A stretch of DNA of 64,000 nt from an uncultured Eubacteriales bacterium (GCA_964644675.1 CAZXWK010000001.1:50430-114429), one strand, 5' to 3'; positions 4,343 through 54,952 are shown, counted from the first letter of the stretch. Numbers and translations are program-made. The notes: a model not told the origin generated them from the letters alone.

Positions 4343-4462
4343 TCGTGGGGCGCGCCGGGCGTCGAGGCCGGGGCATCGCCCGCGCGAGGGGTGCGGGCGT
4401 CTCGACCGACGATCGTGGGTGCGATCCGCGTGGGGTTCCCGGGGCATGCTCATAGACGTCAG

Positions 4463-4642
4463 ATGTGCTCGCACTGCGGCAGCAGGGACGCGCGCGAACT
4501 CGGCGAGTGCTCGGTCTGCCACAAAGCCGTCTGCGAGATGTGCGGGAGCGTCCAGATCGCCGCGGGCGAGCGCAAGATCATGCACCGCGAGTGCATCAAG
4601 AAGGACGGCGGGCAGTTCCGGATGATCAAGTTCGTGAAGTAG
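4463..4642 (+). CDS. small cysteine-rich (zinc-ribbon-like) protein, function unknown
   Basis: 59 aa with CSHC, CSVC, CEMC and HREC pairs and non-shadow amino-acid composition. The start is uncertain: the ORF is open from a GTG at 4391 and there is no clear RBS before 4463. Confidence 0.45.
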   Translation: MCSHCGSRDARELGECSVCHKAVCEMCGSVQIAAGERKIMHRECIKKDGGQFRMIKFVK

Positions 4643-4648
4643 CCGCCC

Positions 4649-5908
4649 GTGGTCGCCGACCTTGTCTTCCCCGAAGGCTTCCTGTGGGGCGCCGCGACGT
4701 CCTCGTACCAGATCGAGGGCGGGGAGACCAAGACCGACTGGGACTCGTTCGCTGCTGCCGGCCGGCTGCTCGAGCCGCGGGGTGACGCGTGCGACTCGTG
4801 GAACCGCTGGGCCGAGGACCTCGACCTCGCGGCCGAGCTCGGGCTCAACACCTACCGCATCTCACTCGAATGGGCGCGCATCGAGCCCGAGCCGGGCTGT
4901 TTCGACGACGATGCGCTCGCTCACTACCTCGACGTGGTGCGCGGCATCCGCGAGCGCGGGATGCGATCGATGGTCGTGCTGTGGCACTTCACCAATCCGG
5001 CGTGGCTCGGCGTCTCGGGGCGTGTCTGGCACTCGGACGCCGCCGCGAGCGCCTTCGAGCGTTACGCGCGGCACGTCGCCGGGCCGCTCGCGCCACACGT
5101 GGACTGGTGGGCGACGCTGAACGAGGCGAACACCTACTCGAGCCACGGATGGCTTGAGGGCGACTGGCCCCCTGGGCACCGTCACGACTGGCCGGGCGGG
5201 TTCCGTGTCTACGAGTACCTCAGCAGGGCGCACAATCGCGCGTACGCTGCGATCAAGCACGAGGCGGGCGAGAGTGCACGGGTCGGCCTGACTCACGTCA
5301 TGCCCTGGACGCACCGCGCGGCGGTTCGCGGGGGGTTCTCGGCGGGGATGCAGGCGTACTGGCGCTGGCTCGGCGTCCACCACTTCCTCGACAAGTGCCG
5401 CGGGGCGATGGACTGGCTGGGCGTGCAGTACTACTACGACTCGCCGACGCGCATGCTGCGGCTGGTCGACCGCGACGGCAGCACGCCGCCCCGCACCGAT
5501 ATGGGCTGGCGCATCGCACCGGAAGGGCTCTACCACGTGGTGCGAGAAGCGAGCGAACGCTACCGGGTTCCCATCATCGTGACCGAGAACGGGCTGGCCG
5601 ATGCGGCGGACACGCAGCGGGCGCGCTTCATCGTCGACCATCTGCGCTGGCTCGGCCGGGCGATCGACGATGGGGCCGAGGTGCTCGGCTACCTGCACTG
5701 GTCGATGCTCGACAACTACGAGTGGGCCTTCGGGTACGGGCCGAGGTTCGGGCTCACCGAGGTCGACTACGCGACGCAACGGCGCACGCTGAGGCCTTCG
5801 GCGCGGCTCTACGGCGAGATCGCGCGGACGAACCGGGTCGCCGCCGACGCCGCGCTCGGGCTGGCGTACGCGGACGGAACGGGGCCGCTCGGACCCGAGG
5901 CGGGCTGA
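4649..5908 (+). CDS. glycoside hydrolase family 1 (beta-glucosidase-like)
   Basis: GTG start. The N-terminus FPEGFLWGAATSSYQIEGG, the acid/base LNEAN and the nucleophile VTENG are GH1 signatures. Confidence 0.85.
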   Translation: MVADLVFPEGFLWGAATSSYQIEGGETKTDWDSFAAAGRLLEPRGDACDSWNRWAEDLDLAAELGLNTYRISLEWARIEPEPGCFDDDALAHYLDVVRGIRERGMRSMVVLWHFTNPAWLGVSGRVWHSDAAASAFERYARHVAGPLAPHVDWWATLNEANTYSSHGWLEGDWPPGHRHDWPGGFRVYEYLSRAHNRAYAAIKHEAGESARVGLTHVMPWTHRAAVRGGFSAGMQAYWRWLGVHHFLDKCRGAMDWLGVQYYYDSPTRMLRLVDRDGSTPPRTDMGWRIAPEGLYHVVREASERYRVPIIVTENGLADAADTQRARFIVDHLRWLGRAIDDGAEVLGYLHWSMLDNYEWAFGYGPRFGLTEVDYATQRRTLRPSARLYGEIARTNRVAADAALGLAYADGTGPLGPEAG

Positions 5909-6104
5909 CCGTCGGGCGTGACCGCGGCGCCGGGAAGGACTCGTGCCGCCCGCGTGCGGTACGCTGTTCACGTTGATTCAGTCAAGTCGGGGCGCGTTCT
6001 CTCCGATGAGAACCTATGTACGACCGGTCCCGGAGGGCCGGCCGGGACTGTGCCCGTTCGCAGCCGGGTCGACCCGCACGTGCCATACCCGTTTAGGGGG
6101 ATCC

Positions 6105-9100
6105 ATGAAGCGCTCATACGGACTCATCGTCGCCGCGGTCACCGTCGCCATACTGTTGGCGGCACCCGCATCGGCACTCGCTTTCCAGGTGACTGGAGGC
6201 GGAGGCAACCAGACGCAGAACCCGTACGGGTACTGGTACGCCGGCAAGGAGGCGTGCGCGCAAGAGGGGTGTCACTCGGCGATCGCGGCGGTCAAGACCC
6301 CGCACAGCGAGATGGTCAAGGACATCGGCGCGAACCCGGGGCAGCTGTATCCCGCTGCGGACAGCGGTCACTGGCCGTTCACGAGCCCGATCATCGGTGG
6401 CATCTCGGTGCTGCCGCGCGACATCTACCTGCAGGTCGGCGACGACGAGGGCTTCCTGGAGTACATCGGTCAGGAAGGCAACTCGAAGGCCGTCAACGTC
6501 AAGCCGACCGACGACCTGCCCGTGTGGAGCCCCGCCAACTGGCTGATCGCCGAGGACAGGCTCGAGGCGCAGACGTCGAAGATGGGCAACGGCGTATACG
6601 GCCAGAGCTGCTCGCAGTGCCACAACGTGGGCCAGACTCGTCCGGCGAACGCGAAGTACACGCTGCCGAGCGGAGCGACGCAGACGACCAACACTCCGAC
6701 GACCGTGAGCGAGCTCGGCATCCAGTGCGAGGCGTGCCACGGGTCGGGCAAGGTGCCCGACGGCCACAAGAAGGGCGTGCCCGGAGTCGTGGGCGGCTAC
6801 CAGGTCCTCAAGGCCCAGACGTGCGGCCAGTGTCATGTGAGCGGAGCAACGCCGCAGCTGAACGTGGGGGGCACCGCCTTCGGCAACCCGAACGGCTTCA
6901 CGACCGACCAGAAGCTCTCGGACTACCTGACCGCGTACTCGGTCGTCGAGACCGAGGGCCAGATGATGAAGTACGTGAACAACCCGAGCTGGCCGGGCGG
7001 GACCAAGCCCAGGTTCCTGCCCAACGGGGCGGACTTCTCGATGCGGCACACCTACTACAACGAGTGGCTGGTCAACAAGACGCCCGTGCCCTCCGGCGGA
7101 GAGCACGGTCACGCCGATCCGCTCAACAACGAGGTCCGGACGGCCGCCGCGGCTGGGGACACCACGTGCCTGAAGTGCCACTCGGGTCTCGCGTTCCTCA
7201 ACCGGGTCGACGCGAAGTCGCCGTCCGGGACGCGCATCGTCGGGACGTTCCCGAGTTGGGCCACGGTCCAGACCGACGACCCCGGAATCTCGTGCATGGT
7301 GTGCCACACCGGTCACGTCGCCAAGAAGGAGGGCGGCGGCTACGACAGCCTCCGCCGCAAGGGCAACGGTGAGACCGTCGAGTGCACCGACTGCCATAAC
7401 TGGCAGTACGAGGCGCTCGGCAAGAGCGTCCAGTACGAGGCCATCGACGGCACCGAGTACGCCCGACCGGCCGCCAACGCCCGCGTGAACTACGCGCAGC
7501 GCGAGATGTTCTCGGGCGGCAAGGGCGGCAGCGACGGCACGGGCGGCATGTGGGGCGTCGAGCCGATGGAGTCGGGCATGCCCGACGTGGAGTGCCGGGA
7601 CTGCCACATGCCCCGCACGCACAAGGAAGGCATGCCCACGACCGACGACGGCTCGACGACCGGCACGCGCATGTCGCACCGGTTCCACGTCGTCTTCCCG
7701 GGCGACGCGAAGCGGTGGAAGCTCCGCCCCAACGGCGATTCCTGCACGGCCTCCTGCCACGAGCAGGACGCCTCCGAGTGGACCAGGGATGACTTCCAGG
7801 CGTGGATCGACCAGAAGCGCTCGAGCGTGACGACGGCCACGGACGACGCCACCGGCACCCTCGGTGCTGTCGCGACGGACCTGGGCCTGGCGGGCGGATG
7901 GACGAGCTTCATGGCGTCGAAGCCGACGGTCGGTCCGGGCTCGGCACTGTCGCCGGCCGTCTGGGCGATGCTGCAGCACGCGGCTCAGAACTGCGACTTC
8001 GTCGTCACTGACGGTTCGGGTGGCATCCACAACCCCGCGTACGCGACCGCCGGCCTCCAGAAGTCCTACGAGTGGGCGCTCGCCTACGACGCGTCCTTGA
8101 GCGCCGCGATCGTCGGCGGCAAGCCGGTCGACGGCAGCGGGTTCCAGGTCGAGGGCACGCTGCTGGGCCTGGGCGACGAGCCGATCGCGGGCGCCGAGGT
8201 GGCGCTCGAGGTCTACCAGGGCGGGGTCTGGACCCAGATCGACCAGGCGACGACCGACGCGAGCGGCGACTACACGTTCGATACGGGCGTCCTGCGCGGC
8301 ACGTTCCAGCTGCGCGCGGCCTACGTGCCGTCATCGGGCGTGTCCGTGACCTCGACGCCCATCGACGTCGTGATTCCCGAGACGGTGTGCGATCTCACGC
8401 CGGCCGGGGCCGGTTCGTCGTGGGTGGATGCTGCGTCGGTCCAGGTACAGCTCACGTCGAGCAGCGGCATGAAGTTCTACTCGCTCGCGGGCGCGACCAC
8501 GCTCGCCCCGACGCTCTACACCGGTCCGTTCACCATCAGCGCCGAGGGCGAGACGTCGATCCGCTTCTGGTCGGCCGACGCCGATGGGCTCGAGGCGCCG
8601 CAGGTCCAGGGCGTCCACATCGACCGCGCCGCGCCGGTCCTCTCGAGCGACGCCGCATCTGGCTACCTCGAAGGCGCGTCGGTGCGCGTATCCGCCTCTG
8701 ACTCGGGAGCGGGCGTCGCCAAGCTCGAGTACTCGCTCGACGGCGGGCCGCTGTCGACGGCGAGCAGCACCTGGGCGGTCTGCACGACCACCGGTCTCGG
8801 TTCGCACACGGTCGCCGCGCGCGCGACCGACGTCGCCGGCAAGGTGACGAGCGCGTCGTGGACGTTCGCCGTCCGGACGACGCCCGCGCTCGCGAAGTCG
8901 CCTTCGAAGAGCACGGTGAGCGTCCGGTACAAGAAGTACTGGGCGCCCAAGGTGACGGTCACCGCCCGCGGTGGCGCGGTCGCCGGCAAGCGTGTCGTGC
9001 TGCAGCGGTCGAGCAACGGGCGCACGTGGTCCGACTACGCCTCCTTCACGACGAACGCGTCTGGGCAGGCCTCGGCGTCCATCAAGATGTCGAGGCGTGG

Positions 9101-9185
9101 CACCACCTACTGGCGTTGGATGTCGCCCGAGGACGCCTCGTACGTCGGTGTGACCACCGCGAAGACGAAGGTGTCCGTCAGGTAG
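6105..9185 (+). CDS. secreted multihaem c-type cytochrome with C-terminal Ig-like/carboxypeptidase-regulatory-like surface domains
   Basis: ATG at 6105 follows TAGGGGG. Signal peptide MKRSYGLIVAAVTVAILLAAPASALA. Seven CXXCH motifs start at 6609, 6726, 6822, 7167, 7293, 7383 and 7593. There is also a CX4CH (6255-6275) and a CX3CH (7743-7760). The C-terminal ~400 aa are beta-rich with Ig-like repeats (e.g. AAPVLSSDA...VRVSASDSGAGVAKLEYSLDGG). Confidence 0.85.
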   Translation: MKRSYGLIVAAVTVAILLAAPASALAFQVTGGGGNQTQNPYGYWYAGKEACAQEGCHSAIAAVKTPHSEMVKDIGANPGQLYPAADSGHWPFTSPIIGGISVLPRDIYLQVGDDEGFLEYIGQEGNSKAVNVKPTDDLPVWSPANWLIAEDRLEAQTSKMGNGVYGQSCSQCHNVGQTRPANAKYTLPSGATQTTNTPTTVSELGIQCEACHGSGKVPDGHKKGVPGVVGGYQVLKAQTCGQCHVSGATPQLNVGGTAFGNPNGFTTDQKLSDYLTAYSVVETEGQMMKYVNNPSWPGGTKPRFLPNGADFSMRHTYYNEWLVNKTPVPSGGEHGHADPLNNEVRTAAAAGDTTCLKCHSGLAFLNRVDAKSPSGTRIVGTFPSWATVQTDDPGISCMVCHTGHVAKKEGGGYDSLRRKGNGETVECTDCHNWQYEALGKSVQYEAIDGTEYARPAANARVNYAQREMFSGGKGGSDGTGGMWGVEPMESGMPDVECRDCHMPRTHKEGMPTTDDGSTTGTRMSHRFHVVFPGDAKRWKLRPNGDSCTASCHEQDASEWTRDDFQAWIDQKRSSVTTATDDATGTLGAVATDLGLAGGWTSFMASKPTVGPGSALSPAVWAMLQHAAQNCDFVVTDGSGGIHNPAYATAGLQKSYEWALAYDASLSAAIVGGKPVDGSGFQVEGTLLGLGDEPIAGAEVALEVYQGGVWTQIDQATTDASGDYTFDTGVLRGTFQLRAAYVPSSGVSVTSTPIDVVIPETVCDLTPAGAGSSWVDAASVQVQLTSSSGMKFYSLAGATTLAPTLYTGPFTISAEGETSIRFWSADADGLEAPQVQGVHIDRAAPVLSSDAASGYLEGASVRVSASDSGAGVAKLEYSLDGGPLSTASSTWAVCTTTGLGSHTVAARATDVAGKVTSASWTFAVRTTPALAKSPSKSTVSVRYKKYWAPKVTVTARGGAVAGKRVVLQRSSNGRTWSDYASFTTNASGQASASIKMSRRGTTYWRWMSPEDASYVGVTTAKTKVSVR

Positions 9186-27921: not shown

Positions 27922-28088
27922 GTTCGCGGCACGGGCGTTGCTTGGACATCGACGGGACGCGAGCGTGCTCGTACCCGCGCGAACCGTGCGCGGCGTCATT
28001 GCGTTAGCGGCCTGAACTTGAGAAACTGAGTTGTTGGGTCCATGCCGATCACCTGGGGGTGAACGGGCTGGTTCGGGCGAATCATGCC

Positions 28089-29216
28089 ATGAGACTGCTC
28101 GCGCTCATATTCACGGCGATGCTTGTCATAGCCGTGTGTCTCGCATTCGCTCAGCCCGCTTTGGCCTACGACGAGACGACGGGCTATCCCACACCGCTCG
28201 GACATGCGACGGGCTACGCTCAGTGCCTCTCGTGCCACGGCTACTCCCAGGCATCCGGGGACTGCATGGGATGCCACGGACCGCCGCTCTTCCCCGACAC
28301 GGTGCAGTACGGACGGGGCCCGCATGCCGGCTACACTACGGGCTCCGAACGCTGCTCGGTCTGCCACAGCGTCCACACCGCCCTTGGGAGCTACGCGTTG
28401 CTGCCCGAGGCGACCGTCCTGGCGACGTGTGAGACGTGCCACGACGGAACGGGCGGCAAGGGAGTCTACGGCGCGATCCTTGCGCGAACCGGCGTCGCCC
28501 CGGCACAGCAGCATCGCATAGAGGCGACCAGCACCGTCCCTGGTGGGAATCCGGCCACGGGCGGCAGTCTCGAGGCGACGTTCGCCGGGCCTAGCGGGAC
28601 CTTGACGTGCTCCGACTGCCACAACCCGCACAACGCGAACACGATCGCCGATTTCCCCGGCGAGCGCCGGCGCGTCCCGTACACCACGGCTTCGCGCACG
28701 ACATGGCAGTCGCTCGAGACCAACCGCCTGCTGCGCAAGAGCCCCGGAGGCACGACCGCGACCGTTGACGTGTACGGTTCCGATTGGTGCCTCGCGTGCC
28801 ACCGCGGCCGCGGCGAGGGTACGGCAGAGCACAATCACCCGACCGACTCGAAGGCGTCCCGTGCCGATGCGTTCACGTACTCCAACGCGGCGCTCACGCA
28901 GGGCGAGTCGCTTACGACCCAGACGGTCATGGGTCCGCTCGCCGGCTCAAACCGGGGCTACCTGATGCCCGACCCGAGATCCACCCAGCAGTCGGGCCAC
29001 AAGCCGATCTGCCAGCAGTGCCACGAGGACAGCCGATACGTGGGCGTCTTGACGACTGCCGGCGCCGATGCAGCCACCTTCACCGTGTCGCTCGACGGCA
29101 GCGTGGCCACCGACAACCCGCGGTTCCAGAACTTCCCCCATGAGACGCAGAACGCGCACATGCTGGTGGAGACCGGCGACGGGTTGTGTCTCAACTGTCA
29201 CGCGGTACTGCCCTAG
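28089..29216 (+). CDS. secreted octahaem c-type cytochrome
   Basis: Signal or anchor sequence MRLLALIFTAMLVIAVCLAFAQPALA. Eight CXXCH motifs: CLSCH, CMGCH, CSVCH, CETCH, CSDCH, CLACH, CQQCH, CLNCH (first at 28224, last at 29187). An alternative GTG start lies at 28059. Confidence 0.8.
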   Translation: MRLLALIFTAMLVIAVCLAFAQPALAYDETTGYPTPLGHATGYAQCLSCHGYSQASGDCMGCHGPPLFPDTVQYGRGPHAGYTTGSERCSVCHSVHTALGSYALLPEATVLATCETCHDGTGGKGVYGAILARTGVAPAQQHRIEATSTVPGGNPATGGSLEATFAGPSGTLTCSDCHNPHNANTIADFPGERRRVPYTTASRTTWQSLETNRLLRKSPGGTTATVDVYGSDWCLACHRGRGEGTAEHNHPTDSKASRADAFTYSNAALTQGESLTTQTVMGPLAGSNRGYLMPDPRSTQQSGHKPICQQCHEDSRYVGVLTTAGADAATFTVSLDGSVATDNPRFQNFPHETQNAHMLVETGDGLCLNCHAVLP

Positions 29217-37205: not shown

Positions 37206-39137
37206 ATGGCGAACCGGAGGGCCTTCCTCATCACGCTCGCAGTGGCGCTCGCGCTCGTCGCGAAGCTGCTGCTGACGCGGTACCTGATACTGGGCGTGGC
37301 GTTCGCGCCACTCGCGGTGGCGAGCGACGTGGCCTTCGTCGTCGCTCTCGTGCTGATCGTCGACGCGCTGGCGCCCGACCACCGCCTGGGTGCCCTGTTC
37401 TTCCTCGACCTCGTCGTCACGGTCGTCATGGTCGCCTCGGTGATGTACGCGAACCACTATGCGGCCGTACCGACGGCCGGCCTCATCCCGCTCGCCGGCC
37501 AGCTCTCGGCGGTCTCGAGCGCGGTGCGGCTCGCCGCGACGCCTGTCCTGGCGCTCTACGCCATCGACCTCGTGCTCCTCGGCGGGCTGTCGATCGCGAT
37601 GGCGGCCCGCCGTCTGGGCGTCTTCAGCGGTGACGCAACGCCGGAGCGGCCCGGGATCGTTCGGCTGCACGGCGGCATCTACCTCGTCGCCGTTCCGGCC
37701 ATCGTGGTGTTCGCGATAGCCGTGGGCAGGGTCGCGGGCGCTGGGGCCTCCGACGACGGGCGACGGCTCGCGGCGGCGGACGGGCTGTTCGCCTACCAGG
37801 TCGCGACGATCGTCCCGCGCCAGGCCGACGTCTCGGGAGAAGTCGACACGACCGACCCGCGGGCGGTGCAGCGCGCGATCGATCAGCTGAACGGGGGTGG
37901 TTCGGGGGTTCGCGTCGCCGAGTTCGAGCGCGGCTCGTTCGCGGGCAAGAACGTGGTCATCGTGCAGGTCGAGGCCTTGCAGTCGGCCGCTGTGGACGCG
38001 AAGGTCGGCGGCGTGCCGGTCATGCCCAACCTGAGCCGCCTGGCCTCGCAGAGCTGGTACTTCCCGAACACGCTCGCCAACGTCGGGCGGGGAACCACCG
38101 TCGACGCCGAGTGGGCCGAGAACACGTCGCTCTATCCGCCTGCGGAGACCGCGTCCTCACAGCAGTGGGCGGACCGCAAGGCGCGGTCGTTGCCGCGGCT
38201 GCTGGCGGAGCGGGGATACGACAGTCTCACCTTCCACGCGAACACCGTGCACTTCTGGAACCGTGGCCAGTTCTACCGAGCCCTGGGCTTCACGCAGTAC
38301 TTCGACGACACGTACTTCGGCTCGGACGACCGCGTGGGAATGGGCGCCTCGGACGAGGTGCTGTTCGCCAAGACGGTGGAGGAGCTCGAGCGCAGAAGGG
38401 CGAGCGGCAAGCCCTTCTACGCCGAGGTCATCACTCTCTCCTCCCACTACCCGTACGACTCGCTGCCCGCTTCGAAACGGCGCCTTGGCCTTGCCGAGCC
38501 GTACGCCGGCACGCTGACGGGCGCGTACCTCCAGAACATGGAGTACGTCGATCGGGCGCTGGGCCGGTTCCTCGGCTCGCTGGAGGCGGCCGGGCTCTCC
38601 CAAGACACGGTCGTCGTGGTCGTGGGCGACCACTTCGGCATCAAGGACGTCGAGACGCTCGGAGACGAAGCCGCCGCGCAGCGGGCGCTGTTCGGCCGGC
38701 AGTACAACGAGGCTGACCGCGTGAGCGTGCCGATGGTCGTGCACCTTCCCGGTCAGACCGAGGGGCGCCTGCAGCAGGGCGTGGCGGCGCAGGTCGACGT
38801 CATGCCGACCATCGCCGACCTGCTCGGCATCGACCTGTCCGGCACGCCGCACGTCGGCCGGTCACTGTTCGTCAAGGGTCCGCGGGTCGTCGCAGGGACG
38901 GGCTTCCTGGCGGCCGGCTCGTACGCGGACGATAACTACGTGCAGGTCACCGGAGCCACCGCGAGCCAGAGCCGGGCCTTCGCGGTCTCCGGGCACGCGC
39001 CCGTGCCGCAGCCGGCCGACGCAGCCTCGATGGAGGAGCGCGCCCGCGCTCTGCTCGAGGTATCGCGGGCGTGGGCGGACTCGCTGCCCCGCGACCCCGC
39101 GTCGACGGCCGACCCGCTCTCGGTCATTCCGCGCTAG
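37206..39137 (+). CDS. LTA-synthase-family (LtaS/sulfatase-fold) membrane protein
   Basis: Five N-terminal TM helices precede an extracellular alkaline-phosphatase-superfamily domain (...VIVQVEALQS...GTTVDAEWAENTSLYP...VVVVGDHFG). Confidence 0.8.
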   Translation: MANRRAFLITLAVALALVAKLLLTRYLILGVAFAPLAVASDVAFVVALVLIVDALAPDHRLGALFFLDLVVTVVMVASVMYANHYAAVPTAGLIPLAGQLSAVSSAVRLAATPVLALYAIDLVLLGGLSIAMAARRLGVFSGDATPERPGIVRLHGGIYLVAVPAIVVFAIAVGRVAGAGASDDGRRLAAADGLFAYQVATIVPRQADVSGEVDTTDPRAVQRAIDQLNGGGSGVRVAEFERGSFAGKNVVIVQVEALQSAAVDAKVGGVPVMPNLSRLASQSWYFPNTLANVGRGTTVDAEWAENTSLYPPAETASSQQWADRKARSLPRLLAERGYDSLTFHANTVHFWNRGQFYRALGFTQYFDDTYFGSDDRVGMGASDEVLFAKTVEELERRRASGKPFYAEVITLSSHYPYDSLPASKRRLGLAEPYAGTLTGAYLQNMEYVDRALGRFLGSLEAAGLSQDTVVVVVGDHFGIKDVETLGDEAAAQRALFGRQYNEADRVSVPMVVHLPGQTEGRLQQGVAAQVDVMPTIADLLGIDLSGTPHVGRSLFVKGPRVVAGTGFLAAGSYADDNYVQVTGATASQSRAFAVSGHAPVPQPADAASMEERARALLEVSRAWADSLPRDPASTADPLSVIPR

Positions 39138-39158
39138 GGCGGCGAGTCTCTCGGCAGC

Positions 39159-41486
39159 CTAGCGGTCCCGCTGGCGCGCGGCCTCATCGAGGATCGCTGC
39201 CACCAGACGCGCCTCGCCGGGGTTGTGGCTGGTCTTGGCGTGCCACGGCAGGTTGTAGGCGACCCAGATGACGCGCCCCTTGCCCCACGCGCGTTCGGCG
39301 ACGAGCGGCTTGCCGTCGAGCCGCGCGAGGACGCGGAGTGGCCCCGAGCCCGGCAGCGCCGAGTAGCCGGCCCCGAACCACGGCTCGCCGGTCTCGGTGC
39401 GCCAGGCCGACGGCGAGATCCGCCCGACCTCAGGGTGGTTCGCCGAGAAGTCCGGATCGAGTGAGATGGTCGCGTTCTCGCTCACGTGTTGCCGGGCGAT
39501 CACGGTGTCGAAGAGGACCGACTCGCCCAGCGAAGTGGGCTCGCTCAGGTTGCCCGACGCGTCGAACACGAGCGTGCCGCCCTCTTCGACGTAGCGCATG
39601 AGGAGACGCTCCGCGTTGCCCCGGTCGTGCCACAGGCCCCCGAAAGCGACCACGTAGGGGTACCGCTTCAGCTCCTCGAGCGTGACGCCGTCGTAGTAGG
39701 CGGTCCCCTCGAGGTTGTAGTCTCCCTCTTCGTGCTTCAGATACGTGGTGAAGCCTTGCAGTTCCTCGAGGTAGTTCTCCCATCCCGAGCCCAGGTACAG
39801 AGCACGTGGCAACGGCGTCACCGGTCGGTCCCGCTTCAGGACGCGCGCGCTCCCCGTGTCGAAGACCGCGCTGAAGCGTGACGGTGTCTCGGGATGAACG
39901 GTGATGTAGTAGGCGGCATCACGCTTGTCGAGTTCGTGTCCAAAAGCCCGGGCGTCTTCGAAGAACGGCATGGCGAGGACGTTGCGCCGGGCGTAGAAGG
40001 CGGTGACCGGCCACATGTCCGAGAAGACCGTCCCTTGCGCGGACGAAGGCTGCCTCGACAGGTAGGCGGCGGTCTTGCGCGCGTCGGCGACCGTGGGATC
40101 CGGCCGCCAGTTCGTCCGTGCGACGTCGATGGCGACCCCGGCGGCCAGCACCAAGACGAGCGGGAGCCACGCGAATCGGACCAGCGACCGGGCCGCGAAG
40201 CGGCCGTCGTCCGAAAGAGAGGTCTCCTCGTCGACGGTTTCGGGCCGCACCGGGAGTGCCGCGACCAAGCGGTCCCAGCCGAGCGCGACAAGGTAGGCCA
40301 CCTGCGGCGCCATCACGATGTAGTAGCGCGTGACCCGCTGTGCCCACTGCTCGTGGAACGTGTAGTAGCCCAGAAGCCACGCGATCACCACGGCGTCGAG
40401 CGCGAGGTCAGCCGGCACGGCGCGCTTGTGCGCGCTCGACGGATCGTGCTCCTCGGAGGTGAGCAGCCGCCACACCAGATAGACGCTCCCCACGATCGCG
40501 ACCTGCGTGGACAGCAGGCCACCGTGCACGGCGACCCAGGCCGCGGCGGCCGCGATCGCGAACGAGACGCCGATACGACCCGCCGAGACGTGCCGATCGT
40601 GCAGCGACCGGAACGCGGCGAGCGCCAGCCCGAGCACCGCGAGCATCAGCAGCAGCGTCGTGAAGAAGGCGAGGGGGCGCGGCGCGGCGAGGACGGGGAG
40701 CGCGCCAAAGTAGCTTCCGACTTCGCGGAGGACGCCTGCAGTGATATCGGCGGACTGCTGGATGCGAAGCGAGGTCACGAACGGGTAGAACGGCTCGCTG
40801 AAACGGCGCGAGTAGAAGTAGCCGAACGGCGCGTACAGCGCCAAGGCCGCAAGGATGCCCAACGCGATGTCGCGGGCGTGGGCGAAGACGCGGGTGCGGA
40901 AGAGCATCCAAAGCGCGATGGGGAAGACGAACAGCAGCGAGGTCGTGCGCATCAGGACGGCGCACACGGCGAGTGGGAACGCCGCGATGTAGTAGCGCGA
41001 GTCCGACTCCGTGGCCCGGTACAGGGCGAGAAGGGCCCACGTGCACAACGCAACCGCGCCGATGTCCGTGTAACCGACGCCGATCCACTCCCATACCGGC
41101 GGCGCGACGAGCACCGCAAGCCCGGCTCCCGCCGCGACGAGGGGCGAGACCCGCTTGCGCGCGAGCAGGTACGCGCCGGCAACTGCGAGAAGCGCGAACG
41201 CGAAGTCGACGACCTGGATCACGACCGGGCTCATGAAACCCAAGCGGACGAGCGGCGCGGCGACCACCGAGATCAGCGGCGGCCTTGCCGGCTCGGTGTA
41301 GCCGTAGCCGCGTCCCGCCAGAGCGGCCGCGTTCGCGAAGAACGAGTACGTGTCCCAGCCAGGCCCGGCGACGATCTGGGCGACCAGTTTGTAGAGCGCG
41401 AGGGCCCCGACGAGCGCGAACGCCCGCACGAGTCGCGGATCGGCGGGCGAGGGTGAGGTCGGGTCCTGTGTGCCGGCGTGGATCAC
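39159..41486 (-). CDS. GT-C-fold (family 39/PMT_2/ArnT-like) polytopic membrane protein with ~300-aa soluble C-terminal domain
   Basis: The GTG start overlaps the GT2 stop (GTGA). A first-loop motif ...GWDTYSFFANAAALAGRGYGYTEPARPPL... is followed by about 11-12 TM helices. The C-terminal soluble domain ends ...GKGRVIWVAYNLPWH.... The rest of the 1283-aa ORF upstream is a shadow of the GT2 gene. Confidence 0.7.
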   Translation of the reverse strand: MIHAGTQDPTSPSPADPRLVRAFALVGALALYKLVAQIVAGPGWDTYSFFANAAALAGRGYGYTEPARPPLISVVAAPLVRLGFMSPVVIQVVDFAFALLAVAGAYLLARKRVSPLVAAGAGLAVLVAPPVWEWIGVGYTDIGAVALCTWALLALYRATESDSRYYIAAFPLAVCAVLMRTTSLLFVFPIALWMLFRTRVFAHARDIALGILAALALYAPFGYFYSRRFSEPFYPFVTSLRIQQSADITAGVLREVGSYFGALPVLAAPRPLAFFTTLLLMLAVLGLALAAFRSLHDRHVSAGRIGVSFAIAAAAAWVAVHGGLLSTQVAIVGSVYLVWRLLTSEEHDPSSAHKRAVPADLALDAVVIAWLLGYYTFHEQWAQRVTRYYIVMAPQVAYLVALGWDRLVAALPVRPETVDEETSLSDDGRFAARSLVRFAWLPLVLVLAAGVAIDVARTNWRPDPTVADARKTAAYLSRQPSSAQGTVFSDMWPVTAFYARRNVLAMPFFEDARAFGHELDKRDAAYYITVHPETPSRFSAVFDTGSARVLKRDRPVTPLPRALYLGSGWENYLEELQGFTTYLKHEEGDYNLEGTAYYDGVTLEELKRYPYVVAFGGLWHDRGNAERLLMRYVEEGGTLVFDASGNLSEPTSLGESVLFDTVIARQHVSENATISLDPDFSANHPEVGRISPSAWRTETGEPWFGAGYSALPGSGPLRVLARLDGKPLVAERAWGKGRVIWVAYNLPWHAKTSHNPGEARLVAAILDEAARQRDR

Positions 41487-43039
41487 GATGACCTGTGGAA
41501 GCTCGCCAACCACTTGAGGATCGGCTGGACCCCGGCGAGCACGGCGACCGAGATCAGCGGGAGTGTCGCGCGCGCGAGGAACGCCCACGCCAGCACGAAG
41601 CCCTTGAAGACTCCCGTGAGGAGCTGGATCGACCGCAGTCTCGCGATGTCGAAACGCTCGCGCGTCGGCCCGATGACGCCGGGCACCGTCCACTGCTGGT
41701 CTTCGGTCAGGGCGGTCAGGAACCCGGAGAAGCGGAAGTGGAACACCATGAACCGGAAGATCGGCAGCGCCACGACGGACCACGCCGAGCGCTCGATCCG
41801 GTGACGGGTGTCCTCCTCGGCGATGGCGTAGATCGCGAAGGTGTTCACGAACTCCAAGAGCAGGTAGAACACGTACATCGCGAAGATGGCGATCGCGATG
41901 AGCCAGGGCGAGTATCCCAAGAGCGGGAAGAAGAGCACGAGCGGCGTCCACACCAGGCGCGGGAACGCGAGCGTGTGGTCCATGAGCAGCATCTTGGGAA
42001 GCGACTTGCGCTCGTTGGACGTCCGCGAGTTCGAGGTGATGAGGTCGGCGTTGAGGGCGGCCACTTCGAGCTGTCCGCGCGCCCAGCGAACGCGCTGGCC
42101 GTAGAGGTCGTCGAGGCGGATGACGGGATCGAGGAAGACCCGCGCCCGGTGCACGAATCCGATCTTGACGCCGGCCCGGTGCAACGCCCAGGTCATGTCG
42201 GTGTCCTCGGAGACGGTGCGGTTCGAATACAGGCTGCACCGCTCGAACTCGGAGCGCCGGAACGCCGAGCAAGCTCCGGCCAAGGTGTACATGGTGTCCG
42301 TCTCGGACTGTGCGGCCCTGCCCAGGCTGAACGACGACTGGTACTCGAGGAACTGGCTCTCCGAGAGGAACAGCTGCCAGAGGTTGAGCTTCTGGGGCGT
42401 CGGCATGCCCTCCTCGTCGAGAATGAGATCGCCGTTGCGGTCGCGCGCCTCGACCAGGTCCCAGTCGACCTCGATGTTGCCGGTCGCGGCGCCCATCTCC
42501 GGGTTGCGGACGAACGCCTCGGCGATAGCGCGGATGCAGTAAGGGGCGAGCACGACGTCGCTGTCGATGTTGACCAGGATCTCGCCCTCGGATGCTTCGA
42601 TGCCCGTGTTCAGCGCGTGGGCCTTGCCGGCGTGGCCGTTGCGGATGACGACGAAGCGCCCGGCGAACGGTCCGATCTCGATCCGCTGGCCGCGGATGAT
42701 CATGCCCGTCGCCGGATGCGTGCCGTCGGCGTGCGACTGAGCGAGCTCGGCGGTCCCGTCTGTGGAGCCGTCGTCGATGACGACGACCTCGAGCTTGTCG
42801 TGCGGGTAGTCCTGGACCTTGACCGATTGCAGGCAACGGTCGATGACCGCGGCCTCGTTGTGCGCGGGCACGATCACCGTGACCTTGGGCAGCTCGTCGT
42901 CCTCGTAGTAGGTCTCGTGGTCGTCGTGGCGGCGGCGCCGGACCAGGATGAGCCGCTGAACGGTGTCGACGCCGTCGACGATGATCGGCGTGATCAGCCA
43001 GACGCCCCACAGGAGGATGAACGCCCAGACGCTACCCAT
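41483..43039 (-). CDS. processive family-2 glycosyltransferase (PgaC/cellulose-synthase-like polysaccharide synthase)
   Basis: N-terminal TM helix, then VTVIVPAHNE, VIDDGSTD, NIDSDV, TEDTD-like SEDTDMT and QRVRWARGQ (Q(Q/R)xRW), followed by four or more C-terminal TM helices. The start overlaps the upstream gene by 8 nt. Confidence 0.85.
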   Translation of the reverse strand: MGSVWAFILLWGVWLITPIIVDGVDTVQRLILVRRRRHDDHETYYEDDELPKVTVIVPAHNEAAVIDRCLQSVKVQDYPHDKLEVVVIDDGSTDGTAELAQSHADGTHPATGMIIRGQRIEIGPFAGRFVVIRNGHAGKAHALNTGIEASEGEILVNIDSDVVLAPYCIRAIAEAFVRNPEMGAATGNIEVDWDLVEARDRNGDLILDEEGMPTPQKLNLWQLFLSESQFLEYQSSFSLGRAAQSETDTMYTLAGACSAFRRSEFERCSLYSNRTVSEDTDMTWALHRAGVKIGFVHRARVFLDPVIRLDDLYGQRVRWARGQLEVAALNADLITSNSRTSNERKSLPKMLLMDHTLAFPRLVWTPLVLFFPLLGYSPWLIAIAIFAMYVFYLLLEFVNTFAIYAIAEEDTRHRIERSAWSVVALPIFRFMVFHFRFSGFLTALTEDQQWTVPGVIGPTRERFDIARLRSIQLLTGVFKGFVLAWAFLARATLPLISVAVLAGVQPILKWLASFHRSS

Positions 43040-46000
43040 GGCGCACGTCCTTCTCGGCCGACGGGTCTATCTTGGCGCTGACCACCGCGACGGTCGGCCT
43101 GGTCATGAGGTACCAGAACACTACGACGATGCCGGTGAAGAAGAACACGCGCCCGACGACCGCGTGGGCGATGAAGACCCACGACGTGCCGAGTGCCGAG
43201 ATCATCGCAATGATGATCAGGATGCGAGCCAGGTTGATCGCGTAGGTCGCCGCGGCCCCCACTGCCGCCGTGCCGAGCCTGCGACCGCTGCGGAACGCGG
43301 GGTAGAAGAGCGTCAGCCCGACGAACGCGGCGATCTCGAGGAGGGCCGAGCACTCGACGCCGATGTCGAAGACGCCCCAGCCGACGTGGTTCTTGATCGC
43401 GAGCCCTGACGAGCCGAGCAGCTCGATGTGGAGCGTCAGCCACTGCGCGATCGCCGCCGCCTGACGCGCCTCGATCGCCTCGAGCTTGGCGTCCCAGCCG
43501 AGCGCCTGCGAGAAGAAGAGCACGAACATCACGAATCCGAACGCGCCGAGCAGGTACATCCGCAGCCACTTGCGCCTGCTGCGCAGGTAGAGCGTCAGCG
43601 CGAGCCACAGGGCGCCGGCGGCGAGGATCCACGGCAGCGAACGCGGTCCGGTGGCCGCGATGTCCTGCATCCACGCGCCCAGAGTTGGGACCGAGTAGAA
43701 CTGCGTCGTCTTGGTGTCGATCAACGACCCGTCCGACGCCTTCCAGTACTCGGTGACGTTGTACGTGCCCTGGTTAGGGAACGCCGAGTTCGAGATCGAC
43801 CAGGCCGGATCGGCCCAGTACGAGGTGCCCGCGACATCGACGCCGGTGCTCGTATGCGTCTGTACCGCGGACACGCCGTTCCACGTCTGCGGGTTGCCCG
43901 ACGCGTCGATGTAGGTGTCGAGGCTGCCGAACACGCCGTCCCCGTTGGTGTCCCACCAGATGACGTAGGTCGCTGTCGAGTTGATGATCGAGATCGGGCT
44001 CGAGTTGTGCAGCGACGACGACACCGAGACGTTCTGGCCGATCGTGGCTGCGTCGGTCGCCCAGAGCGCGGCGATCTCCGCGGTCTTCTCGGCGACGAGC
44101 ACGAACGTGGTCGTGTAGGTGAGCGCGCCGTTCGACCGGTAGACGCGCAAGGTCCACGTGCCCAGCTCGTCGGTTGCGGTCGTGGTGTACGTGTCGGTCT
44201 TGACGCCGCTCGAGTTGGGCGCCGACGTGGCGCCGGTGCGGATGGTCGCGCCGCTCGGCGAGGTCCAGACGAAGTAGTATTGGCGGTTCGTCGCGAGCGC
44301 CGTGGCCTTCGCGTAGACCGTCGCGCCGCGCGTGAAGGTCGTCTCGGCGGCTTCGTACTTGGAGTCCGGGTAGGTGACGACGGACCGGACCGTGGTGGTG
44401 TCGGTCGCCGAGCTCGTCGAACCACCCGATGAGGCCGTCACGGTCATGACGTCGACGGTGCCGGACGCGGTTCCGGAGGGCACGGTGACCTTCACGACGA
44501 CGTCACGGGTGGTCCCGAACGGCCCCATCACGACGTTCGTGAGGGGGGTGACTCCGTCGGTGTCGTAGAAGGCGGTGGTCCACCCGCGGCTGGTCGAGGC
44601 GCTCAACGTGACCGTCCGCGTGGTGGCCGAGCTGTTTGTGATCGTGTGGACGTAGGCAGCGCTTCCGCCGGGAGCGGCGAACGACGCCTCGTTCGGCGCG
44701 ATCTTCAGGTCCGATCCGACGACCGTCGTCACGCCGCGGGCGCTGTCGGTCGTCGATGGGCTCGCGAGCAGGCTTCCGGTCAGCACCATCGTGTCCTGCG
44801 TTCCGGCCGCCGTGCCGGCGGGAACCGTCACGCTCACGACCACGGTCGTCGACTCCATCGCTCCGAGCGAGACCGACGTAACCGTGCTGCCGACCGCGTT
44901 CTTCAGGGTGGTCTGCCAGCCGTGTCCGGACACGGCGGTCAGATTGACCGTGTTCGGCTGTGCGTTGTTGTTCGCGATCGTGTACGTGTAGCTGATGGTC
45001 TGGCTGGCAGCAACGCTTCCGGCCCGATCCGGCGACAGGATGAGACCGAGAGCGGGCGGGACCTTGAAGCCGAAGTCGACGGTGTTGACGTTGGTATTGG
45101 TGACCGTGACCAGGGCCTGCGCCGGACTTGGGGTCGTCGGAGCGAAGCCGAAGAGCGCGCCGCCGGCGTTGAAGTTCGCCGAGTCGACGACTACGCGGTA
45201 GGTGCCGTTCCAAGTGTTGACGCCGTAGGCTCCCGACGAGTCCGTCATCGCGGCCGCGATGACCCTGCCGGTCACGGTGTCCGTGAGCGACAAAAGGACG
45301 CCGGCGATGCCGTTCTCGCCCGCGTCCTGCACGCCGTTGCCGTTGAGGTCGTTGAAGACCGTGTCGCCCACGGTGAACGGCGCGGGTGGCGGCATGGGCC
45401 TGCCCGACTCGTCAACGCCGATGATCGGGTGCTCGAAGCGCAACGCGTTGAGGTTGTGCATGTCGACGCCAACGGCCCGTACGTCATACATGCCCGAGGG
45501 CAGCGAGTCGACGTGGTAGTCAGTGACGGCCGTGCTCGTCGCGACCGTGTCGAGCCGGAAGAGCTCCCATTCGGTCGTGCCGGAGGGGTCGTTGTTCGCC
45601 CAGGTGTTGCCGAGCGGGTCGATCACCGAGTACCGCACGTTGGGCGTGCGCCGGTAGTTGGCGTTGGTGTTGTCGTCGGCGGGTGCGCCGGCGTTGGCGG
45701 CCTCGGTGATCGCGGCCCCCGGATCGAACGTGGGCGTGTAGGTGGTGTTCGCGTCGTTCGTGTCGTTGATGAGGTCGAAGTCGCCGTCCCACAGGTCGAT
45801 ATGGTCGGCTTCCTGCGCGACCTGCATGTAGAAGTCCCACGTGCCGTCGTAGGTGGTGGGCGTGAGCGTCGGCCACGCCGGGTAGACGAGCGACTGGGTG
45901 GACGGGAACGCGCCGATATAGCCGAACACCGTGGTCGGGATGATGTAGGTATAACCTTCGACGCGCGCCTTGAAGACATTCATGGAGTTGACCGTCGGAG

Positions 46001-46490
46001 ACGTGCCGTTGACGACCAAGCGGTAGAAGTAGTTGCCCGACGGCGCCCTGGCCGCGGCGCTCGTTGCGACGGGGAAGTCCGTCCACGCGTTCTCGGCCAT
46101 CTGAGTGTCGGTCCACGTCGCGACGACCGTGGTGCCGGTGCCGTTGCCGAGCGGATCGGCGTACAGCGTGTACGACGTGGGGAACGTCGGCGTGTACATG
46201 TCCCAGAGCGAGCTGGACGCGCCGTCGAAGAAGCCGAGGTTGAACGTGCTCAGCGTGTTGTCGACCGAGAAGCTCAGCGTGACGGTCGTGCCCGACAGCG
46301 TGGAGAGCCCGTCACCTGCGACGCACAGCATCTTGCCGTCGTTGGTGACGCCGGTCGGGAAGTACGAGTACACGGGAGCGGCCGACGCGCCTGACGGGGC
46401 GGTGGCACAGGCGATCGCCGCGAGTGCCGCCGCGAACAGCGAGGCGATCCGTCGGACGGTGGTCCGCCGTGCTGTCGCGAGTCGCCGCAC
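43032..46490 (-). CDS. giant secreted adhesin-like protein fused to a C-terminal exosortase/archaeosortase-family membrane domain
   Basis: The ORF is continuous. The proposed GTG start at 46490 lies 13 nt after GGAGG and gives the signal peptide VRRLATARRTTVRRIASLFAAALAAIACATAPSGASA. The ectodomain has an SdrD-B-like fold (VFNDLNGNGVQDAGENGIAGV) and tandem NEW3/CARDB-like domains. The last ~180 aa have five TM helices and ordered candidates C (43350-43352, VECSAL), R (43224-43226, AINLARI) and H (43164-43166, IAHAVVG). The start is uncertain because the ORF is open to 46730. Confidence 0.75.
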   Translation of the reverse strand: MRRLATARRTTVRRIASLFAAALAAIACATAPSGASAAPVYSYFPTGVTNDGKMLCVAGDGLSTLSGTTVTLSFSVDNTLSTFNLGFFDGASSSLWDMYTPTFPTSYTLYADPLGNGTGTTVVATWTDTQMAENAWTDFPVATSAAARAPSGNYFYRLVVNGTSPTVNSMNVFKARVEGYTYIIPTTVFGYIGAFPSTQSLVYPAWPTLTPTTYDGTWDFYMQVAQEADHIDLWDGDFDLINDTNDANTTYTPTFDPGAAITEAANAGAPADDNTNANYRRTPNVRYSVIDPLGNTWANNDPSGTTEWELFRLDTVATSTAVTDYHVDSLPSGMYDVRAVGVDMHNLNALRFEHPIIGVDESGRPMPPPAPFTVGDTVFNDLNGNGVQDAGENGIAGVLLSLTDTVTGRVIAAAMTDSSGAYGVNTWNGTYRVVVDSANFNAGGALFGFAPTTPSPAQALVTVTNTNVNTVDFGFKVPPALGLILSPDRAGSVAASQTISYTYTIANNNAQPNTVNLTAVSGHGWQTTLKNAVGSTVTSVSLGAMESTTVVVSVTVPAGTAAGTQDTMVLTGSLLASPSTTDSARGVTTVVGSDLKIAPNEASFAAPGGSAAYVHTITNSSATTRTVTLSASTSRGWTTAFYDTDGVTPLTNVVMGPFGTTRDVVVKVTVPSGTASGTVDVMTVTASSGGSTSSATDTTTVRSVVTYPDSKYEAAETTFTRGATVYAKATALATNRQYYFVWTSPSGATIRTGATSAPNSSGVKTDTYTTTATDELGTWTLRVYRSNGALTYTTTFVLVAEKTAEIAALWATDAATIGQNVSVSSSLHNSSPISIINSTATYVIWWDTNGDGVFGSLDTYIDASGNPQTWNGVSAVQTHTSTGVDVAGTSYWADPAWSISNSAFPNQGTYNVTEYWKASDGSLIDTKTTQFYSVPTLGAWMQDIAATGPRSLPWILAAGALWLALTLYLRSRRKWLRMYLLGAFGFVMFVLFFSQALGWDAKLEAIEARQAAAIAQWLTLHIELLGSSGLAIKNHVGWGVFDIGVECSALLEIAAFVGLTLFYPAFRSGRRLGTAAVGAAATYAINLARILIIIAMISALGTSWVFIAHAVVGRVFFFTGIVVVFWYLMTRPTVAVVSAKIDPSAEKDVRHG
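44385..45045 (-). repeat. tandem duplication of a ~110-aa Ig-like (NEW3/CARDB/DUF11-like) domain inside the giant protein
   Basis: Two consecutive modules each end in ...VVVSVTVPAGTAAGTQDTMVLTGS... / ...VVVKVTVPSGTASGTVDVMTVTAS.... The boundary lies near 44720. Coordinates are approximate. Confidence 0.5.
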
Positions 46491-46756
46491 ATGTCGAGAC
46501 AGGCCTCCGGCTATGCGGAAACCTCCGACGGCGTCAGGCTCTTGCTGGCGCGTGCGGACTGAGCGGACGAGCACGATGTGTTCCTCTCGGGCGCGGGGAG
46601 CCGCGAGACGGCGACTTGGTGGAGCTAACGGCACACAGCGACATAGTCTACAGTCAATTAGCCGATAGAAACGACGGAAGGAAGCATGCTCTGACGAAGG
46701 GGCGGAACGGGCGACGGACGGGCGTATCATCCGTGGTCACGGGCGCCATTCGTCGA

Positions 46757-54163: not shown

Positions 54164-54167
<4 letters not shown>

Positions 54168-54952
54168 GTCCCGAGAACCCCGAGTCGACGACGGCGCCCG
54201 CAACGCCTCTCGAGCCCGTACCCGTCGCGCCCGCCGAGCGTCCCCTGACGCTCGTCGAGTGGAGCGTCGCCGAGGGCCTCGCGCTCGTCGTGTTCGCTAT
54301 CGTGCTCACCTTGCTCGCGGGGCTCGTCACGGCGCGCGTCTTCGCGTCCGGGCTCAGCGACGAGGTGCAGTCGCTCATCGTCGGCGGTCTGCTGTTGCTG
54401 ACCTACGCGGGCCAGGCCGGCGCTGCGTGGGTGAGCGGGCGGACTCGCGGGGTCTCCTCGCTCGGATCGATCGGGTTCTGGCCGATCGCCCCGGTCGTGC
54501 CGTGGGTGCTCGCCGCCGTGGGTGTCGCCGCGGGCATGCGTGTCTTCGAGATGGTGTACGAGGCGCTGCTCCGCGCCGGCGGCGTGGCGCTGTCGGGACA
54601 GAACCTCGACATGACCCGGATCCTGCCGCCGGGCGTGTTCGGCACCGCGTTCACGGTGGTGCTGCTCGTCGTCATCGCCCCCATCGCCGAGGAAGTCGTC
54701 TTCCGCGGCGTCCTGCTCTCGGCGTTCCGGGCGCGGTGGGGCGACGTCGCCGGGATCACCGTCTCGGCCGCGATCTTCTCGGCGGTGCACCTCAATCCGT
54801 ACTCGTTCCTGCCGCTCTTCGTTCTGGGCGCGTCGATGGGCGCGCTGTTCGTGAAGTCTCGCTCCCTGTGGACCGCGGTCATCGCACACGCGGCGTTCAA
54901 CGGGCTCGGGGTCATGGCGCTGTACGCGCTGCGCGCTCTGGGGCTGCAGTGA
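54164..54952 (+). CDS. CPBP-family intramembrane glutamic endopeptidase (CAAX protease-like)
   Basis: Motifs are EEVVFRG (EExxxR), FSAVH (FxxxH) and HAAFNG (HxxxN/D). The start overlaps the previous gene by 4 nt. Confidence 0.8.

Follow-up and report, generated by a model that had tools for sequence, protein, structure and literature searches.

The stretch of DNA analysed here raises the question of what a long secreted protein rich in haem c attachment motifs does in a genome of actinobacterial character, and how such a protein would be held in or on a Gram-positive cell envelope. The gene in question occupies positions 6105–9185 (+ strand, end coordinate including the stop codon) of a window of 64,000 nucleotides from an uncultured Eubacteriales bacterium (GCA_964644675.1, CAZXWK010000001.1:50430-114429), which is the whole stretch that was analysed and to whose first letter all positions below refer. 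An earlier note had described the product as a multihaem cytochrome c with immunoglobulin (Ig)-like domains and had proposed it as a candidate conduit for extracellular electron transfer or an extracellular reductase. Judged by its sequence and its predicted fold, the protein is a distant relative of OcwA and belongs to the OcwA/OmhA clade of the NrfA-related multihaem superfamily. OcwA (TherJR_2595, PDB 6I5B), a nonahaem protein, works at the cell surface of the Gram-positive Thermincola potens JR as a terminal reductase for iron and electrodes (PMC6703420), and OmhA (PDB 6QVM) is an undecahaem cytochrome from the S-layer of Carboxydothermus ferrireducens (PMC9250108).

The gene is an intact open reading frame (ORF) of 1026 codons that begins with an ATG at 6105 and shows a GC content at third codon positions (GC3) of 0.92, which is typical for the window. 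The Shine-Dalgarno sequence AGGGGGA (6093–6099, +) precedes the ATG by 5–6 nucleotides and is near-invariant in seven loci. As all orthologues start with MKRS or MRS behind this conserved ribosome-binding site, a longer reading from a GTG at 5943, which would encode 1080 residues, finds no support and was ruled out. Residues 1–26 (6105–6182, +), opening with MKRS, constitute the sole hydrophobic segment of the protein and are predicted from hydrophobicity and n/h/c pattern to form a Sec-type signal peptide with cleavage at ASALA/FQV; both the n/h/c pattern and the AxA/F cleavage site are kept in the orthologues. Gene model, start and hydrophobic N-terminus are thus as the earlier note had described them for an ORF of about 1026 residues.

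All nine haem c attachment candidates proposed between 6255 and 7760 were found at their positions on the + strand. Seven are CXXCH motifs that are invariant in the relatives: CSQCH from residue 169 (haem 2, 6609–6623), CEACH from residue 208 (haem 3, 6726–6740), CGQCH from residue 240 (haem 4, 6822–6836), CLKCH from residue 355 (haem 5, 7167–7181), CMVCH from residue 397 (haem 6, 7293–7307), CTDCH from residue 427 (haem 7, 7383–7397) and CRDCH from residue 497 (haem 8, 7593–7607). The two outermost sites have an expanded spacing. The CX4CH site of haem 1 (CAQEGCH, residues 51–57, 6255–6275) aligns with CKTCH of OcwA with an insertion of two residues, and the CX3CH site of haem 9 (CTASCH, residues 547–552, 7743–7760) aligns with CSSCH of OcwA with an insertion of one residue. 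Shuffling the protein 2000 times gave a mean of 0.009 and a maximum of one CXXCH, against the seven observed. Across 24 aligned full-length relatives sharing 43–60 % identity all nine motifs are invariant, including the CX4CH/CX3CH spacing; some orthologues carry CX4CH instead of CX3CH at haem 9. In a census of complete sequences, the pairing of a CX4CH site for haem 1 with a CX3CH or CX4CH site for haem 9 turned out to be confined to the clade of proteins of about 1020 residues to which the window protein belongs (P0001–P0037), while OcwA and most remoter relatives possess nine plain CXXCH motifs.

Two non-canonical motifs, together with the lack of the gene at the corresponding locus of a related genome (L020, see below), could be taken as signs of a decaying or non-functional relic, or of variant motifs that no longer bind haem. 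We consider this highly improbable. The frame is intact over its 1026 codons, its GC3 of 0.92 is host-like and its ribosome-binding site is strong, the nine motifs and seven further histidines are invariant among the 24 relatives in spite of 43–60 % identity, and the clade as a whole retains the variant spacings. CX3CH and CX4CH motifs also bind haem in other cytochromes, for instance CX4CH in Desulfovibrio cytochrome c3. We therefore treat all nine sites as presumably loaded with haem. The haem 1 site is plastic in sister clades as well, where CXCH occurs in P0046, P0048 and P0062 (TCGCH, ACFCH and GCGCH) and a CX10CH-like spacing in the sister-cluster representative P0054.

The closest characterised relative emerged from profile and fold comparisons alike. 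A profile of 45 family members searched against solved structures matched OcwA best (6i5b_A, E 2.8e-55), in a single alignment over profile positions 43–649, followed by OmhA (6qvm, E 2.4e-16); behind these came NrfA, MccA and ONR, which the terminal helices match weakly. In BLASTP, OcwA and the window protein share 27.7 % identity over 552 columns (E 1.4e-28), and OcwA itself is present in the set of cluster representatives as P0104. The Foldseek search with the full-length AlphaFold2 (AF2) model was dominated by tandem Ig arrays (complement, alpha-2-macroglobulin), so residues 28–680 were modelled again separately. This model, which was predicted without haems, reached a predicted local distance difference test (pLDDT) value of 77 and a predicted template modelling score (pTM) of 0.76, and it retrieved OcwA as the top PDB entry with E 4.9e-19 and a template modelling (TM) score of 0.78–0.79 normalised by OcwA length; OmhA, MccA and ONR/NrfA ranked after it. 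The haem domain is predicted to end in a three-helix bundle at residues 561–662 (7785–8090, +; AF2 helices 561–592, 617–634 and 644–662), which has a pLDDT above 90 and is profile-aligned to both OcwA and OmhA, and Pfam Cytochrom_C552 aligns to residues 493–666. On sequence and predicted fold, the haem domain (residues ~27–662) is homologous to OcwA. What the earlier note had drawn as an analogy to Thermincola thereby turns into homology, and the structure prediction that it had suggested as a check names OcwA as the closest solved structure.

The outer-membrane decahaem cytochromes MtrC, OmcA and MtrF were also considered as an identity and rejected, as the window protein has nine haem sites and not ten and no MtrC-type structure appeared among the fold matches. 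PF22113 matches residues 159–249 only (38 bits, cut-off 30). MtrC, OmcA and MtrF arrange their ten haems as a staggered cross in two pentahaem domains that alternate with two beta-barrel domains, and OcwA has been stated to be structurally unrelated to MtrC (PMC6703420).

In OcwA, six haems are bis-His coordinated, haem 9 is His/Met coordinated, and haems 2 and 5 are five-coordinate and hence open, capped by the non-bonding His-His pairs 281/282 and 380/381; haem 5 is the equivalent of the active-site haem of NrfA (PMC6703420). Outside the motifs, seven histidines of the window protein are invariant in the 24 relatives (67, 221, 315, 336, 404, 525 and 642). All of them align to OcwA histidines, and their number is the one that the OcwA scheme needs, namely six distal ligands and the equivalent of the non-bonding His282, which is His315. 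As a group, His67 (6303–6305), His221 (6765–6767), His336 (7110–7112), His404 (7314–7316, following the haem 6 site), His525 (7677–7679) and His642 (8028–8030, within the three-helix bundle), all on the + strand, are hence the putative distal ligands of the six bis-His haems. Two methionines are invariant too: Met502, which is also found in OcwA and forms an invariant Met502-Pro503 pair behind the haem 8 site, and Met622.

The pockets of the two open haems differ from those of OcwA. We checked the OcwA numbering, which is offset by 29, and both HH pairs lie 99 residues apart as in the paper. Over haem 2, the alignment places Arg314-His315 (7044–7049, +) opposite His281-His282, with His315 invariant and Arg314 nearly so. 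Over haem 5, Asn463-Tyr464 (7491–7496, +) occupy the alignment columns of His380-His381; most orthologues keep a histidine at the 381 position and not at 380, the Asn-Tyr pair of the window protein recurs in P0002, its closest relative, and the variants xH, HI, HP and NY all occur within the family. His282, His381 and His380 were reported to be conserved in all OcwA/OmhA sequences analysed (PMC9250108), a rule from which the clade departs; in the window protein the counterparts of His281, His380 and His381 are Arg314, Asn463 and Tyr464.

Rebuilt pockets of this kind would also suit an enzyme that primarily acts on a soluble compound (for instance nitrite, hydroxylamine, NO, a sulfur oxyanion or a different small oxidant), works in the wall zone with haem 2 and/or haem 5 as catalytic site and serves respiration or detoxification. 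The fold is that of the NrfA/ONR/MccA/HAO superfamily, OcwA reduces nitrite and turns over hydroxylamine (PMC6703420), the invariant His315 and near-invariant Arg314 recall the Arg plus His that are catalytic in NrfA (PMC9250108), and the remodelling suggests selection on substrate chemistry rather than a plain wire. Nitrite turnover by OcwA is very slow, however, with a kcat of ~1 per min (PMC6703420), and the variation of the haem 5 pocket within the family would be unusual for a fixed active site. The hallmarks of the known enzymes are missing as well. There is no CXXCK haem, and the NrfA models score low (PF02335 23.0 bits against a cut-off of 24.1, TIGR03152 11.8 against 692.5), which also led us to reject NrfA as an identity; MccA was rejected in the same way, since neither CX15CH nor CX17CH nor a copper-binding Cys pair as in MccA occurs, only three cysteines lie outside the motifs (630, 762 and 893), and the profile match to MccA (4rkm, E 0.0079) covers the terminal helices only. 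An enzyme for a soluble substrate is in our estimate rather unlikely.

Behind the haem domain, the earlier note had assigned about 470 residues after the last motif to carboxypeptidase-regulatory-like and Ig-like domains. This holds for residues ~664–1026 (~363 residues; 8094–9182, +), whereas residues 561–662 are the helices of the haem domain described above. Pfam/NCBIfam, AF2 and Foldseek agree on a tail of four Ig-like beta-sandwich domains: a CarboxypepD_reg/transthyretin-like domain (~664–757), a second domain (758–842), an OmpL47-type/Big_7 domain (843–933) and a Big_1-like domain (934–1026). The OmpL47-type match (NF047446) scores 52 bits against a cut-off of 40, and the CarboxypepD_reg, Big_7 and Big_1 matches are all sub-threshold. 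The tail is modelled as all-beta with a pLDDT of ~90 and finds tandem Ig/MG-domain arrays in Foldseek. With 35–45 % identity to the orthologues, as opposed to 62 % for the haem domain, it evolves faster; a search with the tail alone was uninformative, giving four weak or partial matches and not recovering the orthologues themselves. Motif and hydrophobicity scans of the window protein bore out the claim that LPXTG and lipobox are absent, and they found no C-terminal membrane helix and no second hydrophobic segment either; domain scans of the protein gave no match to SLH or CWB2.

Remoter family members carry other modules at this end. P0041 has three CWB2 cell-wall-binding repeats (E 1e-43) where the window protein has its Ig tail, and the tail is replaced by DUF5648 in P0035 and P0044 and by Big_3_5 in P0043. 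That relatives swap the Ig tail for such modules suggests a C-terminus that attaches the protein to the envelope or spaces it within the envelope, and, next to the signal peptide, it gives the best indirect support for a wall-associated location.

The same long tail could, however, put the haem domain inside the wall and not on top of it, which would fit an intermediate wall-spanning relay, or a protein for the uptake of electrons from extracellular donors such as Fe(II), a syntrophic partner or a cathode. In principle, multihaem chains can run in either direction. The window also encodes a second secreted cytochrome, with eight haem motifs, and the relatives in culture live as hydrogenotrophic or formatotrophic lithotrophs and possess many cytochromes (PMC9686372). 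Against this, OcwA and OmhA have been proposed as outermost components (PMC6703420, PMC9250108), no feature of the sequence speaks for a direction of flow, and genes for oxidative partners are not found adjacent to the cytochrome gene. We judge uptake or relay to be improbable as the main role. The second cytochrome (28059–29216, +) lies 19 kb away and comprises 385 residues with eight CXXCH motifs and a signal peptide ending in PALA/YD; it matches Pfam Paired_CXXCH_1 and Cytochrome_C7. A weak match (E 3.6e-5) links its residues 166–265 to PDB 7tfs, identified as the Geobacter nanowire cytochrome OmcE (bioRxiv 10.1101/2024.12.21.629920). This second protein could serve the same electron path as a partner, or it could be of the filament type.

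The role that we favour, and regard as probable from the homology to OcwA, is that of a wall-associated terminal reductase with an OcwA-type haem chain that serves acceptors in the extracellular space or the wall zone, which makes the protein a candidate for extracellular electron transfer. It would be exported by Sec, and a maturation system whose genes lie in another part of the genome would then attach its nine haems. The chain would consist of six bis-His haems, of haem 9, which is His/Met coordinated in OcwA, and of the two terminal haems 2 and 5, whose distal site is probably open or occupied weakly. Electrons would enter from upstream membrane or wall cytochromes and leave towards Fe(III) minerals or chelates, humics, flavins or other shuttles beyond the cytoplasmic membrane. 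With the four Ig-like domains serving as a stalk or non-covalent tether, the haem domain may be kept within the Gram-positive wall or beyond it. Both this surface location and the direction of flow, like the physiological acceptor, are what we infer from the comparison with OcwA.

Several observations weigh against such a terminal reductase. Its function is deduced from an identity to OcwA of just ~28 %, and from the capping histidines of OcwA the window protein keeps the equivalent of His282 but not those of His281, His380 and His381. As none of the recognisable anchors named above is present, the protein could be released instead of displayed. No redox partner gene adjoins the cytochrome gene, whose neighbours (guaA, DAHP synthase, pcrA) are housekeeping genes. 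Cytochrome c maturation genes had been reported as absent from the window, and our searches agree: Pfam scans of about 40 of the ORFs called in the window detected no ResB, CcsA or CcdA, and a six-frame search of the window revealed no CcsA/CcmF-type tryptophan-rich (WWD) motif. Finally, Anaerosoma tenue was reported to have an OcwA homologue and yet does not reduce ferrihydrite (PMC9686372), so that homology alone is no predictor of iron reduction.

To place the protein and its host, we searched 5.8 billion proteins and obtained 45 relatives, of which about 40 are nearly full length (41–60 % identity) and about 35 have 1003–1053 residues and are aligned over 98–100 % of the query, again with 41–60 % identity; the few named ones come from metagenome-assembled genomes (MAGs) of Coriobacteriia. 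HMMER over 1.84 billion cluster representatives found just 84 with E <= 0.001, which points to a small superfamily. Where species-representative genomes carry the family, they are MAGs with the label Coriobacteriia or Coriobacteriales, along with a few labelled Eubacteriales or Chloroflexia that show the same conserved gene order; remoter homologues (20–32 % identity) belong to further Actinomycetota MAGs and to isolated MAGs from different phyla. The GuaA encoded in the neighbourhood of the cytochrome is 85–93 % identical to proteins of Coriobacteriia, Anaerosomatales and Actinobacteria HGW MAGs. Based on these best named matches and on the GC content of the window (67–73 %), the host is assigned to the Coriobacteriia (Actinomycetota) and probably belongs to the OPB41/Anaerosomatales lineage, in keeping with the labels of the orthologue loci and with the actinobacterial-like character seen at first reading. 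Of the loci retrieved, only that of a very distant homologue (20 % identity) in the Bathyarchaeota MAG UBA233 (L017) has maturation-like genes next to it; at ~7494 (−) and ~8608 (+) of L017, less than 3 kb from this homologue, there are two ORFs with the tryptophan-rich motif WGxYWxWD, as is typical of proteins that handle haem in the manner of CcsA/CcmF.

The view that extracellular electron transfer is rarely described in Actinomycetota has been overtaken, since Fe(III) respiration and multihaem cytochromes were published for Anaerosomatales in 2022. The cultured members described there encode 17–18 multihaem cytochromes each; cytochrome c biogenesis genes and an OcwA homologue are reported for the order as well, and Parvivirga hydrogeniphila, one of its isolates, is an obligate Fe(III) reducer (PMC9686372). 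As these traits have been on record for the order since then, the window protein is no new category. What is new is the clade, with its expanded haem motifs at both sequence ends, its rebuilt distal pockets, its anchor-less four-Ig tail and its fixed housekeeping locus. We tentatively raise the possibility that these Coriobacteriia proteins of ~1020 residues are a functionally distinct offshoot of OcwA, with another acceptor or reaction and another way of crossing or attaching to the wall. The idea builds on the expanded motifs at haems 1 and 9, where electrons would enter and exit, on the rebuilt open-haem pockets and on the anchor-less stalk of four Ig-like domains. Were it true, the protein might for example be displayed at the surface and reduce one specific substrate, soluble or mineral, and the unusual spacing together with the CXCH and CX10CH sites of the sister clades might call for a specialised haem lyase.

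To our knowledge, very few proteins of Gram-positive extracellular electron transfer have been characterised, and OcwA and OmhA are the only surface reductases with known structures. The present family, conserved and numbering about 40 sequences, extends the OcwA design to environmental Coriobacteriia represented by groundwater, lake and soil MAGs, and it offers natural variants with which the role of the two open haems of OcwA can be probed. Its exchanges of Ig tail, CWB2 and DUF5648 provide material on how a cytochrome is held in a thick wall, and as a marker gene it may help to flag members of the widespread OPB41/Anaerosomatales lineage with the potential to reduce iron or humics.

Concerning its genomic context, the cytochrome gene is monocistronic and sits inside a conserved housekeeping array. 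It is preceded by guaB, guaA and the genes for a D-Ala-D-Ala carboxypeptidase, chorismate mutase, DAHP synthase and a zinc-ribbon ORF of 59 residues, and followed by pcrA and the genes for a DHH-CBS phosphoesterase, a PAP2 protein and a two-component system, and by pstS. This order was found again in seven other loci. In a related Coriobacteriia genome whose GuaA is 85 % identical (L020, GCA_001714665.1, MCHG01000001.1, 10001–15309), the same array lacks the cytochrome between the small ORF and pcrA, which is why we regard the cytochrome as an accessory gene at a fixed locus; L021 shows a cytochrome-less array, too.

In the window, a GH1 beta-glucosidase gene (4649–5908, +; Pfam E 4e-76) stands between the zinc-ribbon ORF and the cytochrome gene and is seen as a lineage-specific insertion, given that it is absent there in all related loci compared. 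Despite this insertion upstream, an element at 5980–6018 (+; AGTCAAGTC ... CCGATGAGAACCTATG), which is conserved in most of the seven loci of the upstream alignment, still adjoins the cytochrome gene. It is possibly a promoter or 5′ leader travelling with the gene. A scan around the cytochrome gene found no sigma-70 consensus or promoter-like site, and the sole terminator-like site in a corresponding terminator scan falls within the gene, on the other strand. Scanning the window for Rfam families and tRNA genes returned nothing.

The small cysteine-rich ORF of 59 residues (4463–4642, +) has the zinc-ribbon-like pattern CxxC...CxxC...CxxC...HxxC and no signal peptide. It is kept at 47–57 % identity directly upstream of the cytochrome in seven related loci, and an unannotated ORF of 58–68 residues is present at the equivalent place in the cytochrome-less L020 and L021. 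The ORF has no NCBIfam match. A longer reading of this region (4343–4639), which contains one CXXCH, was considered as a partner cytochrome and discarded in view of its Cys4 zinc-ribbon pattern and lack of a signal peptide; its start is probably the methionine at 4463.

Further features of the window lie apart from the cytochrome locus. A cluster of four genes for an envelope polymer extends over 37206–46730 and encodes an LtaS-like protein of the sulfatase family (37206–39137, +), a PMT_2-type membrane glycosyltransferase of 773 residues (39159–41480, −), a GT2 glycosyltransferase (41483–43039, −) and a protein of 1232 residues (43032–46730, −) that combines SdrD_B/Ig-like domains with a C-terminal exosortase domain. 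This exosortase domain is nearest to the Gram-positive XrtG type, with 66 bits and below the equivalog cut-off. A strong AT skew (0.29) was noted at 40–42 kb. At 54994–56148 (+), an N-terminal 4Fe-4S ferredoxin-type domain is fused to a membrane CPBP/Rce1-like protease domain, and a stand-alone Rce1-like gene (54164–54952) directly precedes this fusion gene.

Among the known systems, the OcwA homologue of A. tenue M08DHB (MCK8115166-68) comes from the same class and probably the same order as the window protein. Its gene is described as clustered with those of an MtrA homologue and a rubrerythrin (PMC9686372), whereas the window gene stands alone between the DAHP synthase/zinc-ribbon genes and pcrA; the comparison follows the published description, and the two are not taken to be orthologues. 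With NrfA, ONR and MccA the protein shares the haem packing of the C-terminal module and the three-helix bundle, as indicated by weak but consistent profile and fold matches, and it differs from them in having nine haems rather than five or eight and no CXXCK, CX15CH or Cu site. OmhA, a surface-located cytochrome of a Gram-positive iron reducer, falls with the window protein into clade 3 of PMC9250108 and is second-best by both profile and fold, but it has two extra N-terminal haems and no Ig-like tail, and its fold match is weaker (TM 0.41). The closest likeness is that to OcwA. Both are Sec-exported nonahaem cytochromes c of Gram-positives, the location of the window protein being predicted from its sequence; their nine haem sites are collinear and correspond one to one in the same order, and the predicted model repeats the globular haem domain of OcwA, including its additional beta-sheet subdomain and C-terminal three-helix bundle. 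The window protein departs from OcwA by its CX4CH and CX3CH motifs at haems 1 and 9 in place of plain CXXCH, by ~150 extra residues in the haem domain that are spread over five or six insertions, and by the 363-residue tail of four Ig-like domains, which doubles its length and has no counterpart in OcwA. The hosts differ likewise, as OcwA belongs to a member of the Clostridia and the window protein, by the assignment given above, to an actinobacterium of the Coriobacteriia.

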